Below are positions 5,595-42,867 of a stretch of DNA of 64,000 bases, piece by piece. The translations under genes were made by a program, and so were the position numbers. The notes under the pieces are model-generated. The model had not been told where the DNA came from, did not search any database, and saw only the letters and a list, made by a program, of their open reading frames with translations. Numbering within the stretch: position 1 is the first letter of the stretch; each line of letters starts with the position of its first letter. Source of the stretch: Minisyncoccota bacterium (GTDB lineage Bacteria; Patescibacteriota; Minisyncoccia; Phycocordibacterales; UBA9973); the NCBI GenBank assembly GCA_041650615.1, contig JBAZKU010000001.1:458750-522749 (forward strand). The letters run 5' to 3'.

Positions 5595-7292
5595 ATGGCG
5601 ACTTTTGACGAAGAAAAACAAAATAAGCAATTGGATGAATTGCACAAGCAGGAAGAGGAAGAACTGGTAGCAGTATTGGCAGAATCAAAATATAAACTTC
5701 CTTATATTGATTTGGCTCGTTTGGGAATAGATAATGAAGCACTTCGGGCAATATCCGAAAAAGATGCCCGCGAACTAAAGGTTGCGCCCTTTAAGCTTTT
5801 TGGAAAAAATATTTTTATAGCCGTCCGTTCTCCTTCAGATGACCTTCTGGCAAAACTTAAGGACCAGATAGAAAGGTTGGATTTAATTCCTACTTTTTAT
5901 ATGGTATCTCTGGCTTCCTTGGAAAAAGTTTGGGGTAGGTACAAAGAACTTTCCTTGGCGGAAAGTTCAAGAGTTGGGGGGGTAGATATCTCTGCGGAAG
6001 TTTTAAGGGAAGCAGCCAAAAATATTAAAACGACAAAAGACATAGAAAAATTAATTGGAGATACAATAGCAGGAAATTCAGTTCATAAAATTTCCCACAT
6101 GCTTGAAATAATATTAGCCGGAGCGATAGCGGTAAAAGCTTCCGATATACATATAGAACCTCAACAAGAAAGAAGCAGATTGAGACTTCGATTAGATGGC
6201 GTTCTCTACGATGTGATATTTTTCGAAAATAGTATTTATCACCTTCTTAATTCAAGAATTAAACTGCTCTCCGGAATGAAATTAACTTCAAAAATTGCGC
6301 AAGATGGCCGTTTTAGTATTATTGAGAAAGCTGAAGAATTAAGTATTCGTTCTTCTATGATTCCCGGCGCCTATGGGGAATCGATAGTGATGCGTATTTT
6401 GGACCCAAAATCTATTCAAGTAAAACTTGAAGAATTGGGGATAGAACCTTATCTTTTTTCCGTGGTAGAACAGGAAATTGCAAAACCAAACGGTTTAATT
6501 TTAGTTACTGGACCTACTGGTTCTGGAAAAACAACCACTCTTTATGCATTTTTGAGAAAAATTTATTCTCCGGAAATAAAAATAATAACCATTGAAGACC
6601 CAATTGAATATCACTTGACCGGGATAACTCAAACCCAAACAAATGACGAAAAAGGATACACGTTTTTGGAAGGATTACGTTCCGGGTTACGCCAAGACCC
6701 GGATGTGGTAATGGTCGGAGAAATTCGTGATGCGGAAACAGCCAAAACCGCAATAGAAGCAGCTTTAACCGGACATATGGTCTTCTCCACTCTCCACACC
6801 AACAACGCCGCTGGTGTTATCCCTCGTCTGATTGACCTTGACGCAAACCCAAAAATTATGGTTTCGGCATTATCTCTTTCTATTGCCCAACGATTGGTTC
6901 GCAAGCTCTGCCCCTTCTGTAAAACTGAAAAGCCTCCTATTGAAAATGAAATAAAAACTATGAAAATGGTAATGGATGGGATAAAAGAAGAAGGAAAAAG
7001 TCTTTCAAATTACAATATAAACCCGGACGCGCCGATTAAACTTTTCTCGCCTGTTGGCTGCGAAAAATGCAATATGACCGGATACAGCGGGCGAATAGGA
7101 ATTTTTGAAGCAATTAAAACCGATGAAGCTATAGAAAAAATAATGCTCCAAAATCCAAGCGAGCGAGAAATAAAAAAAGCAGCGCGAGTGCAAGGAATTC
7201 TCTCTATGCGCCAGGATGGTGTAGTAAAAATTTTAAATGGAATCACTTCTTTTGCCGAAGTACAAAGCGTGGTTGATTTAAATGAAGAATAA
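5595..7292 (+). CDS. Type II/IV secretion / type IV pilus assembly ATPase (PilB/GspE family)
   Basis: Walker A GPTGSGKTTTLYA, Asp/His boxes, C-terminal tetracysteine CPFC...CEKC. Confidence 0.9.
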   Translation: MATFDEEKQNKQLDELHKQEEEELVAVLAESKYKLPYIDLARLGIDNEALRAISEKDARELKVAPFKLFGKNIFIAVRSPSDDLLAKLKDQIERLDLIPTFYMVSLASLEKVWGRYKELSLAESSRVGGVDISAEVLREAAKNIKTTKDIEKLIGDTIAGNSVHKISHMLEIILAGAIAVKASDIHIEPQQERSRLRLRLDGVLYDVIFFENSIYHLLNSRIKLLSGMKLTSKIAQDGRFSIIEKAEELSIRSSMIPGAYGESIVMRILDPKSIQVKLEELGIEPYLFSVVEQEIAKPNGLILVTGPTGSGKTTTLYAFLRKIYSPEIKIITIEDPIEYHLTGITQTQTNDEKGYTFLEGLRSGLRQDPDVVMVGEIRDAETAKTAIEAALTGHMVFSTLHTNNAAGVIPRLIDLDANPKIMVSALSLSIAQRLVRKLCPFCKTEKPPIENEIKTMKMVMDGIKEEGKSLSNYNINPDAPIKLFSPVGCEKCNMTGYSGRIGIFEAIKTDEAIEKIMLQNPSEREIKKAARVQGILSMRQDGVVKILNGITSFAEVQSVVDLNEE

Positions 7293-7312
7293 AAAAACTA
7301 AAAATAAAAAAC

Positions 7313-7465
7313 ACTAATCTCTAAACAATCCTTTTAGGGCTAAGCCCCGAAAGTAACAAATCATTAGAGGATAGTTCCAGGAACTCGTGAAAGCACCAGA
7401 ACGTCCTATGCAAATTTATATAACCAAAGGCTGATTGCTTAGAGATTAGTGTCTTCTTTTTCAAA
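7313..7465 (+). ncRNA. Candidate structured RNA or MITE-like element (20-bp closing stem CACTAATCTCTAAACAATCC / GGCTGATTGCTTAGAGATTAGTG)
   Basis: Long-range inverted repeat enclosing ~110 nt with internal hairpins (GGGCTAAGCCC, GTTCCAGGAAC, GTGAAAGCAC), followed by a T-rich tract; no ORF. Confidence 0.35.
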
Positions 7466-7612
7466 AACAAAAGAGGTTATACCCCTTTGTAAAAACAATT
7501 ATACTATGGTTCCAAATCAAGCAATTGTTGTAAAAATGCTATAATGTGGATAGTATGTTGATAAGTGGCTTACTTATTAACACTTGGAGAAGTATAGCAT
7601 ATAATAAAACCA

Positions 7613-8653
7613 ATGTCAAGAGAAGAAGATAAAACAAAAAAGAAAACTTCTTTAGAAAAAACGTCCAATATTGGAGATTCTTTTCTAGATCAGACTCTTC
7701 GCCCTACCCGTTGGGAGGAGTATATTGGCCAAAAACATATAAAAGACAACGTTAAAATCCTATTGCGAGCGGCGGAAGAAAGAGGACATATTCCGGAACA
7801 CATTCTTTTTTATGGTCCCCCTGGTTTGGGAAAAACTACCCTGGCACACCTCATAGCTAAAGAAACGGGGAAACAGATGAAAATTACTTCGGGCCCGGCT
7901 ATTGAAAAAGTGGGTGATTTGGCCTCTATTCTTACCAATCTTTCTTCCGGAGACATACTTTTTATAGATGAAATCCACAGACTGAATAAAACAGTGGAAG
8001 AAATACTCTACCCCGCCATGGAATCCGGCGTTTTGGATATAATTATCGGTAAAGGACCATCGGCTAGGACCATTCAATTAGAACTTCCACCCTTTACCCT
8101 AATCGCGGCAACTACTCGTGTTGCACTTGTGTCTTCTCCTCTCCGTTCACGCTTTTCAGGTGGAGTTTTTAGATTGGAGTTTTACTCTGACGAAGAAATA
8201 GCCAAAATTATAGAAAGATCTAGTAGATTACTAAAAACAAAGTTGGATGAAGGAGCTTTGAAGGAAATTGCTAAGCGAAGTAGGTTTACTCCCCGCACGG
8301 CAAATTATTTTTTAAAGAGAGCGCGCGATTTTGCTCAAGTACATAAGAAAAATTTGGATCAAAAGACAGTCAGAGAAGCTTTGAATATGCTTGCCATTGA
8401 TGATATCGGTTTAAACTCCTCGGATAGAAAATTTTTGGAAATATTGATTGATAAATTTACTGGCGGGCCAGTAGGATTGAAAACAATAGGCGCTGCCATG
8501 TCCGAGGAAGAAGCTACGGTGGAAGAAGTAATAGAACCATATTTGATTCAGCTCGGCCTCTTGGAACGCACCCCTCGTGGACGGGTGGCTACTCCCAAAG
8601 CATACAAACATTTAGGTTTTGATTTAAAAGAGAAACAAAGTAAGCTTTTGTAA
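7613..8653 (+). CDS. ruvB: Holliday junction branch migration helicase RuvB
   Basis: GPPGLGKTTLA Walker A, RuvB sensor and winged-helix regions. Confidence 0.95.
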   Translation: MSREEDKTKKKTSLEKTSNIGDSFLDQTLRPTRWEEYIGQKHIKDNVKILLRAAEERGHIPEHILFYGPPGLGKTTLAHLIAKETGKQMKITSGPAIEKVGDLASILTNLSSGDILFIDEIHRLNKTVEEILYPAMESGVLDIIIGKGPSARTIQLELPPFTLIAATTRVALVSSPLRSRFSGGVFRLEFYSDEEIAKIIERSSRLLKTKLDEGALKEIAKRSRFTPRTANYFLKRARDFAQVHKKNLDQKTVREALNMLAIDDIGLNSSDRKFLEILIDKFTGGPVGLKTIGAAMSEEEATVEEVIEPYLIQLGLLERTPRGRVATPKAYKHLGFDLKEKQSKLL

Positions 8654-8655
8654 TT

Positions 8656-9195
8656 ATGTCCGGGCATAATAAATGGGCTCAAATAAAACACAAGAAAGCA
8701 ATTACTGATGCTAAAAAAAGTAAAATTTTTTCTAAGCTTGTGCGTTATATATCCGTGGAAGCAAAACTAGCTAAAGGTGATGTTAATGCGCCTGGGCTTC
8801 GTGCTGCCATAGAAAAAGCTAAAAAAGTTAATATGCCTTCTGAAAATATTGAAAGAGCTGTTAAAAAAGCTTCCGAGCCGGGCACCCAAATGGAATTAAT
8901 AACTTATGAAGCATATGGTCCCGGAGGAGTTGGAATTATTATAGAAACACTAACAGACAGTAAGAATAGAACCGTTCAAGACATAAAACACATTTTATCA
9001 AAAAATGGTTTTACTCTTGCCGATGTTGGGTCTGTCGTCTGGTCTTTCGTTAAAGAAAAAACTCTAGAAGGAATAATTTGGAAACCGAATATGTTTATCC
9101 CTGTTTCTGACGCCGATTTAGAATTATTAGACAAACTTGTAGACGAATTGGAAGAAAATGACGACGTACAAGATGTTTATACTAATGCAGAATAA
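8656..9195 (+). CDS. YebC/PmpR (TACO1) family protein (short form)
   Basis: N-terminus MSGHNKWAQIKHKKA is the YebC signature; 179 aa is shorter than typical. Confidence 0.7.
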   Translation: MSGHNKWAQIKHKKAITDAKKSKIFSKLVRYISVEAKLAKGDVNAPGLRAAIEKAKKVNMPSENIERAVKKASEPGTQMELITYEAYGPGGVGIIIETLTDSKNRTVQDIKHILSKNGFTLADVGSVVWSFVKEKTLEGIIWKPNMFIPVSDADLELLDKLVDELEENDDVQDVYTNAE

Positions 9196-9272
9196 AAAAA
9201 TACTTGTCCCGTTAAAAAATCAGCGGAATAAGTACTGTCGAAAAATTTTATTAGTTTAAATTTTTTAATGGG

Positions 9273-9752
9273 ATGAGAATTTTGGGGATAGATCCGGGAT
9301 ATGAGCGATTGGGAGTCGCCATCCTTGAAAAGAATAAAGGCAATAAAAAAGAAAAAGTGTTATTTTCCGAATGTTTCAAAACTTCCGCTAACTTAGAATT
9401 TTCTAAAAGGTTGTTTCTAATCGGAAAAGAAATAAAAAATATAATAAAAAAATTCAAACCGGAAGTTTTGGCCATTGAAACCCTTTTTTTAACTACCAAT
9501 CAAAAAACAGTAATGCGTGTGGCGGAAGTGCGTGGAGCTGTTATTTATGAAGCATCTTCAAACGGACTTAAAATTTTTGAAGCTTCCCCGCCCCAGATAA
9601 AAATAGCCACAACTGGTTATGGGAAGGCAAATAAAGAACAAGTGATGAAAATGGTGAAAATATTGGTCGAAATAGACAATAAAAAGAAGTCTGATGACGA
9701 ATTAGACGCTATTGCTATTGCCTTAACAGCCTTTGCTCATATGAAGGTGTAG
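9273..9752 (+). CDS. ruvC: Crossover junction endodeoxyribonuclease RuvC
   Basis: MRILGIDPGYERLGVAILE start, RNase H-like fold motifs. Confidence 0.9.
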   Translation: MRILGIDPGYERLGVAILEKNKGNKKEKVLFSECFKTSANLEFSKRLFLIGKEIKNIIKKFKPEVLAIETLFLTTNQKTVMRVAEVRGAVIYEASSNGLKIFEASPPQIKIATTGYGKANKEQVMKMVKILVEIDNKKKSDDELDAIAIALTAFAHMKV

Positions 9753-38969: not shown

Positions 38970-39040
38970 TGCGGGATGGGAGAATCGAACTCCCAACCTC
39001 AGTTTGGAAAACTGACGTTTTACCATTAAACTAATCCCGC
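38970..39040 (-). tRNA. tRNA-Gly (anticodon TCC)
   Basis: Hand-folded cloverleaf on the reverse strand; anticodon loop TTTCCAA; T-loop TTCGATT. Confidence 0.8.
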
Positions 39041-39079
39041 TTTCCGCTCATAGTCGAAGACCCTGAGCTTACCGAAGGG

Positions 39080-39150
39080 TCGGGCTGCTGGGAATCGAAC
39101 CCAGTCTAAACGCTCCCAAAGCGCTTGTACTACCGGTATACTACAGCCCG
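39080..39150 (-). tRNA. tRNA-Pro (anticodon TGG)
   Basis: Acceptor CGGGCTG/CAGCCCG, anticodon loop TTTGGGA, T-arm CTGGG-TTCGATT-CCCAG. Confidence 0.8.
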
Positions 39151-39189
39151 ATAAACGATATGATCATAAAAAACAACATATAACGACAA

Positions 39190-39237
39190 CAGTCTAAACG
39201 CTCCCAAGGTGCTTGTACTACTGGTACATACAGCCCA
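39190..39237 (-). pseudogene. Truncated tRNA-Pro fragment (5' acceptor/D/anticodon portion only)
   Basis: ~48 nt with ~88% identity to the 5' two-thirds of the adjacent tRNA-Pro; lacks the T-arm. Confidence 0.6.
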
Positions 39238-39256
39238 TGAAAACTTTTTGAGTATA

Positions 39257-39670
39257 TCATAAAATAATATCGCTCACCACTTTTACCCTTGCCTTTTTTT
39301 CTTTTTGGCATATGTAAACAACCAATAAATCAACCTGCCACTCTTTTTCTTCTTCATTGATATTTTTATTTAAAAGATAAGTTTGAATTGTCCTTGATAA
39401 TCTCTTTAATTTCCAAGGGTGCATATTGTCTTCAGGATGGTAATTATCTAATGTTTCATGATTAACACTACCCAAAGTTTCACGCAAAACACTTTTTACT
39501 TCCACAAAATATAATTTATTATCCTTCTCAGCCACAATATCTATTTCTCCCCATTTTTTAGTGTAATTTCGGTCTAATATTAAAAAACCATGTTTCATGA
39601 GAAACCCTTCAGCTATATTTTCACCTATTTCCCCTGTTTTTTGCGTTTCTGATGTAAAAACTTTTGGCAT
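39257..39670 (-). CDS. UPF0102/YraN family predicted endonuclease
   Basis: GE..A..FL...G..IL.RN......GEIDIVA......L.FVEVK pattern typical of YraN. Confidence 0.7.
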   Translation of the reverse strand: MPKVFTSETQKTGEIGENIAEGFLMKHGFLILDRNYTKKWGEIDIVAEKDNKLYFVEVKSVLRETLGSVNHETLDNYHPEDNMHPWKLKRLSRTIQTYLLNKNINEEEKEWQVDLLVVYICQKEKKARVKVVSDIIL

Positions 39671-39911
39671 TCTCTGCTTGTTTCATGTAAAACATCTATA
39701 ATTATGTTTCACGTGAAACTTTTTACTTAATTTTTATGTCTTTTATTATAATATCCTTATTTTACAACGCATTTTTAACAAAAATACCTCTTAAAGACAA
39801 CATTTTTCTATGTCCTTTATAAACATTACCAACATAGTTATCCACAGTTTTTTACAAAACCCTTATAAAATGAAGATAAAATAAAGAAAGTATAAAGGAC
39901 AGGAAAATTTG

Positions 39912-39982
39912 TGCGGCTAGGGAGAATCGAACTCCCGTCTCATCCTTGGCAAGGACGTGTTCTACCACTAAACCATAACCGC
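39912..39982 (-). tRNA. tRNA-Gly (anticodon GCC)
   Basis: Reverse-strand cloverleaf; anticodon loop TTGCCAA; T-arm GGGAG-TTCGATT-CTCCC. Confidence 0.8.
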
Positions 39983-39990
39983 TTTTTATT

Positions 39991-40142
39991 ATGTAAAAAG
40001 ACCACCAAATATAACCACAATTTAAACAATGTAAAAAGACCACCAAATATAACCACAATTTAAACAATGTAATAAAGACCGTTAAATATAACCACAATTT
40101 AAACAATGTAAAAAGACCCTGAATATAATCGCAATTTTAAAT
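39991..40142. repeat. Tandem direct repeat, 4 copies of a ~38-bp unit (ATGTAAAAAGACCACCAAATATAACCACAATTTAAACA)
   Basis: Copies 1 and 2 identical, copies 3 and 4 degenerate; no spacers, so not CRISPR; sits between two tRNA genes. Confidence 0.85.
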
Positions 40143-40261
40143 ATATTTTTATTATAATATTTTAATTAAACTAATGCAATTCTGAATCAGCTTTTATTTT
40201 AAGCATTATTTGTTTCTTTATAAAAAAGGTGTAAAATAATATGTATTATTATAATAATTTT

Positions 40262-40333
40262 GCGCCCGTAGCTCAACGGATAGAGTACCGGTCTTCGGAA
40301 CCGTGGATGTGGGTTCGATTCCTACCGGGCGCA
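40262..40333 (+). tRNA. tRNA-Arg (anticodon TCG)
   Basis: Acceptor GCGCCCG/CGGGCGC, anticodon loop CTTCGGA, T-loop TTCGATT. Confidence 0.75.
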
Positions 40334-40340
40334 CAAAACA

Positions 40341-41831
40341 ATGAATACTATAAAAAGTTTAATGTCAAAAATTCCCAAAGAGGTTTCACATGTAACGAAC
40401 ACACTTGAAAAAGCGGGGTTTAAAGCATATTTAATTGGTGGATGTGTTCGAGATCTCCTAATGGACAGGGAACCTAAAGATTGGGATGTAACGACAAGTG
40501 CCAAACCGGAACAGATCATTGAACTCTTTGAAAAAACAGTATATGAAAACGAATTCGGAACGGTAATGGTTATTCAAGATGATGTTTCACAAGAAACATT
40601 ACGCCAAATAGAAGTTACTCCTTATAGAATTGAGGCAAGATATAGCGATTTTAGACACCCTGATGAAGTAAAGTTTAGCGATAAGCTAGAAGATGATTTA
40701 AAAAGGCGTGATTTTACAGTAAATGCTATGGCTTATAGAAATGGGCAATTAACGGACATGTTTAATGGATTAAAGGACATAGAAGATAAAATGTTAAAAG
40801 CGGTAGGAGAATCTGATGACCGTTTTAAAGAAGATGCGCTCAGAATGCTTCGGGCTGTCCGTATAGCTTTACAGCTTGGTTTTTCTGTGTCTTATGAAAG
40901 TAGTGAAAGTATTTTAAAAAATGCGAATTTAATAAAAAAAATATCACCGGAAAGAATTCGCGATGAACTTATAAAAATAATTTTGTCTAAAAATCCTTCC
41001 GTTGGAATTATAATGCTTCAAAAATTTGGATTATTAAAAAACATAATTCCAGAACTAGAAGAGGGAATTAATTGCGAACAAGGAGGCGAGCATATTTATG
41101 ATGTTTTTAACCATTTACTTCATGCCTTGCAACACTCTGCAGATAAAAATTGGCCTTTAGAAGTAAGGCTCGCAGCGCTTTTTCATGATATAGGAAAGCC
41201 AAAAAGTAGAAGATTAGCAGAGAGCGCTGGTTCGGCTAATAAAAAGAAATTTACCTTCTATGGTCATGAAGTTTTGAGTGCACGAATGGCAAAAAAAATA
41301 ATGGAACGATTGAAATTTTCCAAAAAAGAAATTGAACTGGTTGAAAAACTTATTCGCAATCATATGTTTTTTTCCGATACGGAGTTAATCACACTTTCTG
41401 CAGTACGAAGAATTATTACCAAAGTTGGTCAGGAAAATATTTGGTTGCTAATGGACGTCCGTGAGTGCGATAGGGTAGGAATGAAGAAAAAAGAAGCACC
41501 TTATCGCCTGCGAAAGTATTTTGCCATGATAGAAGAAGCGTTACATGACCCGATTTCTGTCGGGCAGCTTAAAATTAACGGAGAATTTATGATAAAAGAA
41601 TTAGGAATAATTCCAGGTCCGCGAATGGGGTGGATTTTACACGCGCTTCTTGAAGAAGTTTTAGATGATCCGAAGAAAAATACGAAAGAACATCTTTCGG
41701 AGCTAGTTAAATCACTAAATATTCTTCCAGATGATGCATTAAGAACTTTAGGTGAGCGCGGGAAAGAAAAAAAAGAGGAATTGGAGGAAAAAGAAATAGA
41801 AAAACTGCACACAAAACATGGGGTGAGATAA
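40341..41831 (+). CDS. cca: CCA-adding tRNA nucleotidyltransferase with HD domain
   Basis: Pol-beta-type head GGCVRDLLM...DWD, HD domain HDIGK; starts 8 nt after tRNA-Arg. Confidence 0.85.
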   Translation: MNTIKSLMSKIPKEVSHVTNTLEKAGFKAYLIGGCVRDLLMDREPKDWDVTTSAKPEQIIELFEKTVYENEFGTVMVIQDDVSQETLRQIEVTPYRIEARYSDFRHPDEVKFSDKLEDDLKRRDFTVNAMAYRNGQLTDMFNGLKDIEDKMLKAVGESDDRFKEDALRMLRAVRIALQLGFSVSYESSESILKNANLIKKISPERIRDELIKIILSKNPSVGIIMLQKFGLLKNIIPELEEGINCEQGGEHIYDVFNHLLHALQHSADKNWPLEVRLAALFHDIGKPKSRRLAESAGSANKKKFTFYGHEVLSARMAKKIMERLKFSKKEIELVEKLIRNHMFFSDTELITLSAVRRIITKVGQENIWLLMDVRECDRVGMKKKEAPYRLRKYFAMIEEALHDPISVGQLKINGEFMIKELGIIPGPRMGWILHALLEEVLDDPKKNTKEHLSELVKSLNILPDDALRTLGERGKEKKEELEEKEIEKLHTKHGVR

Positions 41832-41851
41832 AAATATGTTAAGATAAAATT

Positions 41852-42778
41852 ATGAGAATTGGAATTTTTGATTCGGGGGTGGGAGGGCTGATTATTGCCA
41901 AAGCGATAAGAAAAATGATGTCGGAATATGATTATGTATATTTAGGAGACACCAAAAGAGTGCCTTATGGTAATCGCTCATATGAGGCAGTTTTTGAATT
42001 CACTAAAGAAGCGATGAATTATCTATTTAAGAAAGAAAATTGCGCCATTGTCATTATTGCTTGTAATACAGCCTCTGCTAGAGCTCTCCGAAGAATTCAG
42101 CGGGAATATTTGGTTGATTACAATGCTACTCGCAGAGTAATGGGGGAGTCTGTTGAAAGAAAAATATTGGGAGTTTTGATTCCAACGGCGGAAGAATGCA
42201 CTAAATATAAAAGAGTGGGGATATTGGGAACTGCGGGAACAATAAATTCGAATACTTTTCCGAAGGAGATAAAAAAAGTAAATTCACAAAAGAAGAAAAG
42301 TTTGCTGCTTTTTCACGGCTCGCACTCGAACTTGGATGCGGTTAACGAGAGTAATCTTGCGTATGCCGAAAAAAGCACAAACTTTTCTTCTTTTACAACA
42401 GTTTTCCAAAATCCTGCGCCGATGCTTGTGCCTTTGATTGAAGAAGGGGAGAGAGTTTTAGCCAAAGAATTTCTTAAAAAATATTTAAAGCCATTTTTAA
42501 ATAAAAAACTGGATGCAGTAGCGCTTGGTTGCACTCATTATCCGTTTTATAAAAGTGAAATCAAAAAAATTCTTGGTCCAAAAGTAAAAATTATTTCTCA
42601 AGACGAAATTATTCCTAAAAAACTAAAAGAATATTTTGCGAGACATCCGGAGGTCACAAAAAAATTAACCCAAAACAGTAAAGCTCAAATACTTGTCACA
42701 GACTTAACTCCCAATATCCTGAAACTTTCAAAAAAATGGTTTGGAGGGAAGATAAAACCAAAACTGATTAGCCTATAA
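41852..42778 (+). CDS. murI: Glutamate racemase
   Basis: GIFDSGVGGL and ACNTAS catalytic Cys motifs; contains a ~35-aa insertion relative to typical MurI. Confidence 0.85.
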   Translation: MRIGIFDSGVGGLIIAKAIRKMMSEYDYVYLGDTKRVPYGNRSYEAVFEFTKEAMNYLFKKENCAIVIIACNTASARALRRIQREYLVDYNATRRVMGESVERKILGVLIPTAEECTKYKRVGILGTAGTINSNTFPKEIKKVNSQKKKSLLLFHGSHSNLDAVNESNLAYAEKSTNFSSFTTVFQNPAPMLVPLIEEGERVLAKEFLKKYLKPFLNKKLDAVALGCTHYPFYKSEIKKILGPKVKIISQDEIIPKKLKEYFARHPEVTKKLTQNSKAQILVTDLTPNILKLSKKWFGGKIKPKLISL

Positions 42779-42783
42779 TTTTG

Positions 42784-42867
42784 TGCCGTGGGGGAGACTC
42801 GAACTCCCAAGGAATTGCTTCCACTAGTACCTGAAACTAGCGCGTCTACCAATTTCGCCACCACGGC
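42784..42867 (-). tRNA. tRNA-Leu (anticodon CAG), class II with long variable arm
   Basis: Acceptor GCCGTGG/CCACGGC, anticodon loop TTCAGGT, long variable arm, T-arm GGGAG-TTCGAGT-CTCCC. Confidence 0.8.

Follow-up and report, generated by a model that had tools for sequence, protein, structure and literature searches.

The gap between pilB and ruvB in the 64,000-nucleotide stretch of Minisyncoccota DNA analysed here (hereafter the window) harbours a real, previously uncatalogued family of structured non-coding RNA, which is conserved, with strong covariation of base pairs, across the Paceibacteria, a lineage of ultra-small CPR bacteria. The functional strand is the minus strand, and the RNA is antisense to both of its neighbours: it is convergent with pilB and divergent from ruvB. 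The element is likely a stand-alone RNA gene, transcribed independently, whose product would be abundant and trans-acting and whose closing stem would double as terminator or processing stem. A full-text literature search did not find a description of this RNA.

The window belongs to a Candidatus Paceibacterota (Parcubacteria, CPR) genome with a G+C content of approximately 35%, and its RuvB is identical to a protein of an NCBI MAG assigned to that taxon. Gene calls and Pfam searches place pilB, encoding a PilB-type T2SSE ATPase, at 5595-7292 and ruvB at 7613-8653, both on the plus strand, with yebC and ruvC next. The neighbours annotated at the locus are the T2SSE ATPase, RuvB, YebC, RuvC, TyrRS and PolA. 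The order ruvB-yebC-ruvC (7613-9752), with no adjacent ruvA, is the same in the relatives L001 and L208. Between pilB and ruvB, starting approximately 10-20 nt past the pilB stop codon, lies the element, which was detected in a repeat search as an inverted repeat with arms of 29 nt (7302-7330 and 7433-7461) that are 86% complementary and 102 nt apart. A pattern search of the whole 64 kb window with the arm motif, allowing three mismatches, returned two matches, i.e., these two sites, where 0.02 were expected by chance. The first-pass annotation of this DNA had reported the sequence at 7313-7465 as a closing stem around local hairpins. The sequence is indeed as described, and the stem enclosing approximately 100 nt of hairpins is borne out. 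The individual hairpins also have counterparts in the structure presented below: GGGC-UAA-GCCC corresponds to P4, GUUC...GAAC to a part of P3, and GUG-AAAG-CAC to the variable tip of P3.

That the minus strand is the functional one follows from its G.U pairs, its UNCG and GNRA loops, the alignment-fold energy, the U-run after the stem and the consensus promoters upstream. In the window, the minus strand folds with -62.1 kcal/mol (z -7.3 vs dinucleotide shuffles), compared to -44.3 kcal/mol (z -5.1) for the plus strand. The minus strand is the more stable one in 115 of the 116 homologues among the matches listed, with means of -60.5 and -44.2 kcal/mol, respectively. For the alignment, RNAalifold yields energies of -42.6 (minus strand) and -6.3 kcal/mol (plus strand). 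Many helix positions that are G.U on the minus strand are A.C on the plus strand, as illustrated by the column pair 24/170, with 62 G.U, 29 G-C and 9 A-U. Hairpin loops of the homologues comprise 23 UNCG, 18 GNRA and one CUUG on the minus strand, against no UNCG and five GNRA on the plus strand. The covariance model R1, described below, scores 147 bits on the minus strand of the window and 44 bits on its plus strand. A T-rich tract had been noted after the stem in the first reading. It is present on the plus strand at 7453-7461, but the stronger tract is on the minus strand (UUUUUUAUUUUUAGUUUUUUU, from 7311 down to 7293). The proposal of a small structured RNA thus stands as far as the structure is concerned; the strand is opposite to the one that was assumed, and the RNA belongs with ruvB.

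At its conserved core, the RNA forms a four-way junction in which the closing helix P1 encloses P2, P3 and P4 (Table 1). Three helices branch from the loop closed by P1 in 122 of 132 minimum free energy (MFE) folds of family members. In the MFE fold of the window, P1 is a helix of 22 bp (7454-7433 with 7330-7309), while the aligned P1 counts 26 pairs (7458-7433 with 7330-7305; columns 4-29 and 165-190 of the alignment A2). The closing helix measures 22-30 bp and the core 128-150 nt. Free covariation is seen in the outer 11 pairs of P1, and near invariance in the inner 14 pairs (AAUCUCUAAGCAAU with AUUGYUUAGAGAUU), even in the unbiased sequences, where L010, L011 and L208 show occasional double changes. 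P2, which is weak in the window, has 4-17 bp in other clades and is often capped there by UUCG, UCCG, GCAA, GUAA or CUUG. Within P3, the conserved UGG/CUG element consists of tandem G.U pairs and one G-C pair, and the apical hairpin varies in length and sequence and is missing in L010. P4 is preceded by the conserved junction nucleotides UUA. Inspection of the RNA by eye for a K-turn, loop E, tetraloop receptor or T-loop gave no convincing example.

Table 1. Features of the RNA locus, in window coordinates; promoters are predicted from matches to consensus sequences.
Feature	Position	Strand	Description
Conserved core of the RNA	7305..7458	-	Four-way junction, P1 enclosing P2, P3 and P4; from consensus fold and covariation
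P1, 5' strand	7433..7458	-	Inner part AAUCUCUAAGCAAU conserved in sequence; outer part covaries freely
P1, 3' strand	7305..7330	-	GAUUGUUUAGAGAUUAGUGUUUUUU; pairs with the P1 5' strand
P2	7422..7432	-	Short 5' hairpin, weak in the window: AGCC-UUU-GGUU
P3	7356..7419	-	Long arm: covarying basal helix, invariant AGGA/UCCU, covarying 4-bp helix, UGG/CUG, variable apical hairpin
P4	7331..7353	-	Hairpin CUUU-GGGGC-UUA-GCCCU-AAAG; inner pairs compensatory
U-rich tail	7293..7311	-	UUUUUUAUUUUUAGUUUUUUU; after P1, abuts the pilB stop codon (7290-7292)
P0	7462..7488	-	Small 5' hairpin and U-run, AAAGGGGUAUAACCUCUUU UGUUUUUG; between proximal promoter and P1
Proximal -10 box (predicted)	7498..7503	-	TAGTATAAT; predicted start near 7490 (A), followed by P0
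Distal promoter (predicted)	7591..7619	-	TTGACA-17-TATACT with TG; 11/12 matches plus TG in the consensus scan
Divergent ruvB promoter region (predicted)	7537..7605	+	Extended -10 TGCTATAAT (7537-7545); TTAACA-17-TATAAT (7577-7605)

Covariation was evaluated in two alignments. A2 contains 101 sequences from the set retrieved by a sequence pattern, and A3 contains the 16 loci retrieved through RuvB homology alone. Part of the invariance seen at many core positions of A2 stems from the search pattern with which its sequences were collected, and only the 16-sequence set A3 is unbiased in this respect. Standard pairs occupy 93.5% of the cells in A2, compared to 81.3% in column shuffles, and 28 of the 50 pairs show compensatory changes, values that are reached in none of 500 shuffles. 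When the 3' partners are slid by 1-3 columns as a control, pairing falls to 40-53%. The results for A3 are similar: 93.6% of the cells are paired, 31 of the 50 pairs are compensatory, no shuffle out of 500 attains such values, and the register-shifted controls give 36-53%. For P1 separately, 96.6% of the cells are paired in A2, with compensatory changes at 15 of its 26 pairs, and this number rises to 19 of 26 in A3.

The element is non-coding. No reading frame is conserved among the 116 homologues, whose longest open frames fall into each of the six possible frames (28/27/20/15/14/12), and within clades the length of the element differs by 1-2 nt, i.e., not by multiples of three. A small protein-coding ORF was therefore rejected as an explanation. 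The earlier description as free of ORFs holds for the strand that was read there, on which no long ORF is found; on the minus strand, a 49-aa ORF with a TTG start (7321-7470) does lie over the element. It is not conserved in the homologues, and a Pfam search with it gave no match. An ORF of 49 aa over the RNA is also present in L212 (1165-1314), where it has been called as a gene in the public assembly. Neither ORF is conserved, and both are probably spurious.

The distribution of the family was established from the ruvB loci outward. Among the GTDB species representatives, seven close relatives, with RuvB proteins that are 71-79% identical, were obtained through their ruvB loci. Six of these (L005-L009 and L011) align to the element directly upstream of ruvB, four of them with approximately 73% nucleotide identity over the whole element, and L009 and L011 in part only. 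The invariant positions of this alignment were turned into a degenerate pattern for a search of metagenomes, which found at least 120 contigs with one match each; the matches listed include 116 distinct sequences. The same pattern had no match in viral contigs, and a phage or mobile origin was rejected. The covariance model R1, built from 101 of the pattern-retrieved sequences, has a single match in the window (minus strand, 7302-7461; 147 bits, E 7e-33), and it also recognizes the seventh relative, L010 (58 bits). Moreover, in all nine further Taylorbacteria and Paceibacteria loci that were chosen purely through RuvB homologues, R1 identifies the RNA on the minus strand upstream of ruvB, with 54-127 bits. 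Conservation in relatives, which the first-pass annotation had proposed as a test of function, is thus present, and it is accompanied by covariation. Upstream of ruvB in the Doudna-, Buchanan-, Falkow- and Moranbacteria-type, other Parcubacteria and non-CPR loci searched, R1 has no match. In one more distant member of the Parcubacteria (L017, RuvB 57% identical), the region at 2090-2356 on the minus strand is divergent from ruvB and has a consensus promoter and an AGAG start. Approximately 200 nt of highly structured sequence (z -6.9) lie there upstream of a 187-aa minus-strand gene. This region matches neither R1 nor Rfam and may be a separate leader RNA.

Comparison with Rfam 15 (4227 models), which had been suggested earlier as a check, did not retrieve a relevant family for the element, either at gathering thresholds or at permissive E-values. 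At gathering thresholds only tRNAs were found in the whole window. At E<=10, the region 7250-7650 gave noise only, and no relevant match was obtained in 16 homologous loci at E<=5 or in eight Taylorbacteria-type loci at permissive E-values. Five of the tRNA genes in the window form a cluster at 38970-42867 and a sixth is located at 731-803. The cumulative GC skew has its minimum at approximately 38-40 kb and rises after it, which may mark a replication origin or terminus.

The neighbour on the ruvB side is constant. In all 116 pattern-retrieved loci among the matches listed that have sequence there, the gene next to the element on the right is ruvB, encoded on the other strand, and in all 16 loci retrieved through RuvB alone the element is found just upstream of ruvB and divergent from it. 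The distance between the element and ruvB is 41-285 nt, with two loci in which the start of the called ORF overlaps the end of the element by 13 nt. On the left side, PilB is encoded in 82 of the 111 loci among the matches listed that have a neighbour there, and unrelated genes in either orientation take this place in the other 29. Because the ruvB neighbour is constant while the left neighbour varies, the element belongs with ruvB and not with pilB. The flank survey and the unrelated left neighbours likewise rule out a pilB-linked element, and termination of pilB, for which an elaborate terminator had been proposed initially, is at most a by-product, as the element is kept in the 29 loci without pilB at the left and its interior is conserved, with covariation, on the strand antisense to pilB. 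The simplest explanation for the linkage to ruvB is that both genes share a region in which their divergent promoters overlap and which cannot be split. Regulatory coupling through interference with the transcription of ruvB is possible.

Two candidate promoters for the RNA are predicted on the basis of consensus matches. The -35 box of the distal one overlaps the start codon of ruvB, since ATGTCAA is the reverse complement of TTGACAT. Among the matches listed, 106 of 108 loci show this arrangement at the ruvB start, and the codon is ATG in 96. A similar promoter is present in L010 and L205, where it lies apart from the ruvB ATG. Taylorbacteria-type loci have approximately 200 nt, including a separate terminator, between the promoter and the ruvB ATG, and the RNA is still conserved. 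The proximal -10 box is conserved as TATAGTATAAT or TATAGTACAAT in the clade of the window and is followed by A(U/C)AGAG. A scan for terminator-like sequences gave one match for P0, compared to 0.1 expected. The order of promoter, AGAG and small hairpin is seen again in other clades, immediately behind the consensus promoter. Hairpins resembling P0 directly follow the predicted start in L010, L205, L143-type loci and other clades, and P0 may protect the 5' end or act as an attenuator. The leader that separates promoter and P1 ranges from approximately 10 to approximately 190 nt, and several clades carry a terminator-like hairpin within it. Since the leader is variable and contains such a hairpin in some clades, the 5' end is a predicted one and either of the two candidate promoters may serve the RNA.

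The region around the ruvB start has further features. At 7577-7619, two near-consensus promoters on opposite strands interdigitate. The plus-strand promoter TTAACA-17-TATAAT, which ends at 7605, would start transcription at the ruvB ATG (7613), resulting in a leaderless mRNA. The minus-strand promoter overlaps that ATG with its -35 box, and the N-terminal 'MS' of RuvB may be under constraint from the promoter. At 7537-7582, the extended -10 TGCTATAAT is followed by the octamer repeats TGTGGATA and TGTTGATA and the inverted TTATTAACA. Relatives from the same clade have three direct repeats similar to TGTTGATA at a spacing of approximately 11 bp, an arrangement that resembles an operator for a transcription factor at the ruvB promoter.

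At the 3' end, P1 is followed in the window by UUUUUUAUUUUU on the minus strand, and this stem with U-run matches the definition of an intrinsic terminator. A run of at least four U after P1 is present in 97 of the 116 homologues among the matches listed, and approximately 16% have no clear U-run. P1 is thus not a terminator everywhere, as these homologues have no clear U-run and Taylorbacteria-type loci have extra 3' hairpins instead. In L205 (740-1005) and L010 (2200-2250), such a conserved extra hairpin of the Taylorbacteria type, AUCCGC...GCGGAU UGCGAC, is located after P1. Taylorbacteria-type loci have approximately 270 nt of further ORF-free, well-folding sequence before pilB, and the RNA may be longer in that clade. 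The arrangement is similar to that of bidirectional terminators and RNase III stems in its long stem, its A-run and U-run, its position between convergent units and its variable outer part around a conserved inner, mature part. Plain terminators differ in that they do not enclose approximately 100 nt of conserved, covarying structure. As the interior is conserved, the element is much more than a terminator.

The overlap with ruvB raises the question whether the embedded minus-strand promoter and its transcript act mainly in cis, controlling ruvB by promoter competition, interference or antisense overlap of the 5' ends, or insulating pilB from ruvB as a bidirectional terminator. The complete linkage to ruvB next to a variable other neighbour, among the matches listed, is in line with such a module, as are the overlap of the -35 box with the ruvB ATG in approximately 100 loci, the interdigitating promoter elements of both strands and the resemblance of P1, with T and A runs on either side, to a bidirectional terminator. 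We nevertheless regard it as unlikely. Neither interference nor termination needs a four-way junction, whereas 28-31 pairs of this one are kept by compensatory change. In addition, the RNA is conserved in the Taylorbacteria-type loci in spite of the distant promoter and the intervening terminator, and the length over which the two transcripts overlap is not conserved.

Several known RNA classes were compared with the element. tmRNA, RNase P and known ribozymes and riboswitches were rejected, as Rfam gave no match. A riboswitch or other cis-acting leader does not fit the locus, in which the next gene on the RNA strand is the convergent pilB (82 of the loci listed) or an unrelated gene and the terminator ends the RNA; a T-box-like leader was ruled out on the gene context as well. 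There is no reverse transcriptase among the neighbours, which excludes a retron msr/msd. Bacterial Y RNAs (YrlA/Yrn1) have a comparable long terminal stem and a cloverleaf-like multi-helix domain; they differ from the present RNA, in which the stem is without bulge, Rfam yields no match, and no rsr/TROVE gene is found among the annotated neighbours. SRP 4.5S RNA (ffs), which had been considered in the first-pass annotation, is likewise small, with paired ends and a long arm with conserved internal elements. This idea has to be abandoned: no SRP model matches, a conserved domain IV (GNRA apical tetraloop with adjacent symmetric and asymmetric loops) is not found, and the tip of P3 varies or is missing.

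The likeness to 6S RNA (ssrS) goes further. The RNA might be a lineage-specific analogue of it, an abundant RNA that, as a mimic of open promoter DNA, binds the holoenzyme of RNA polymerase. The length is similar (approximately 150-190 nt), the two ends form a long closing stem with a second long helix opposite it, two long helices flank a central region, expression would probably be high, and the promoter is of consensus strength. 6S RNAs are, moreover, notoriously difficult to detect via homology. Still, searches with RF00013 and the other 6S covariance models, run with E<=10 on the window and with E<=5 on 16 homologues, gave no match. The RNA has a closed four-way junction with hairpins on both sides in place of a large unpaired central bubble, and the pairs of P4 covary. 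The closing stem is uninterrupted, without bulges, and conserved in sequence, unlike that of 6S. All this makes a 6S analogue decidedly unlikely.

The RNA is probably an orphan structured ncRNA class of the kind that comparative genomics has revealed. Orphan classes such as raiA, OLE and those of the HEARO type are likewise restricted to lineages, intergenic, composed of multiple helices, supported by covariation and equipped with their own promoter and terminator. The present RNA differs from them in that it has no match in Rfam 15, is found in Paceibacteria only and holds an invariant position divergent from ruvB. A more specific and very improbable version would be an undescribed class of abundant CPR four-way-junction RNAs that is coupled to the recombination module. 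Such RNAs could, for example, mimic a Holliday junction and thereby titrate or regulate RuvA, RuvB or RuvC, or act as a sensor that sets the expression of ruvB via the overlapping promoter.

A role on the plus strand, as a structured 3' UTR, a terminator or a small RNA derived from the pilB transcript, is highly improbable. The proximity to the pilB stop, the plus-strand fold (z -5.1) with a T-rich tract after it and the presence of PilB at the left in 82 of 111 loci among the matches listed would agree with it. The alignment fold of this strand is far weaker, however (-6.3 vs -42.6 kcal/mol); its helices contain A.C mismatches, its loops are not stable tetraloops, and the element is still present in loci that have unrelated genes, in either orientation, in place of pilB. 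Finally, a mobile or repetitive DNA of the MITE type, which had been suggested at first and to which the ORF-free sequence and the 29-nt imperfect terminal inverted repeats could point, is practically untenable, as the element occurs as one copy in the window (by pattern and covariance model) and in every metagenome contig listed, keeps its position across genomes whose RuvB differs by up to approximately 30%, shows RNA-type covariation in its interior and is found in none of the viral contigs.

For the stand-alone RNA gene, the following course can be proposed. Transcription would start from sigma-70-type promoters upstream of ruvB, either the proximal one (TAGTATAAT) or the distal one (TTGACA-N17-TGnTATACT). 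The transcript would consist of a variable leader, often with a small 5' hairpin, and the four-way-junction core. P1 would join both ends of the RNA and, together with the U-run, form its own intrinsic terminator; as a side effect, it probably ends the transcription of pilB on the other strand. RNase III cleaves long uninterrupted duplexes. Because the outer part of P1 varies, the inner 14 bp are conserved and a helix of this length without interruption suits RNase III, the outer part may be a terminator or processing stem, and the mature, stable species may be the core of approximately 130 nt. A recognition surface for a protein or ligand is most likely formed by the conserved parts, namely inner P1, the nucleotides of the junction, the CUUU/AAAG base of P4 and, in P3, AGGA/UCCU and UGG/CUG. 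Reading these conserved parts as a binding surface suggests that the RNA acts in trans, as a housekeeping-type ribonucleoprotein or as a regulator.

CPR bacteria, or Patescibacteria, make up a large share of bacterial diversity, and their genomes are very small (approximately 0.6 Mb here), with very few ncRNAs known beyond the universal ones. The alignment and the covariance model provide an annotation marker for the lineage, and annotation of the RNA removes spurious small-ORF calls, such as the 49-aa gene in L212. With a promoter embedded in the ruvB start codon, the locus neatly illustrates how divergent promoters can overlap in nature, and the RNA itself is a concrete target for metatranscriptomic, structural and pull-down work. 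Its retention at a fixed place, with a structure that is conserved across many species and a near-consensus promoter, suggests that it has an important function in these bacteria that has so far gone unrecognised.
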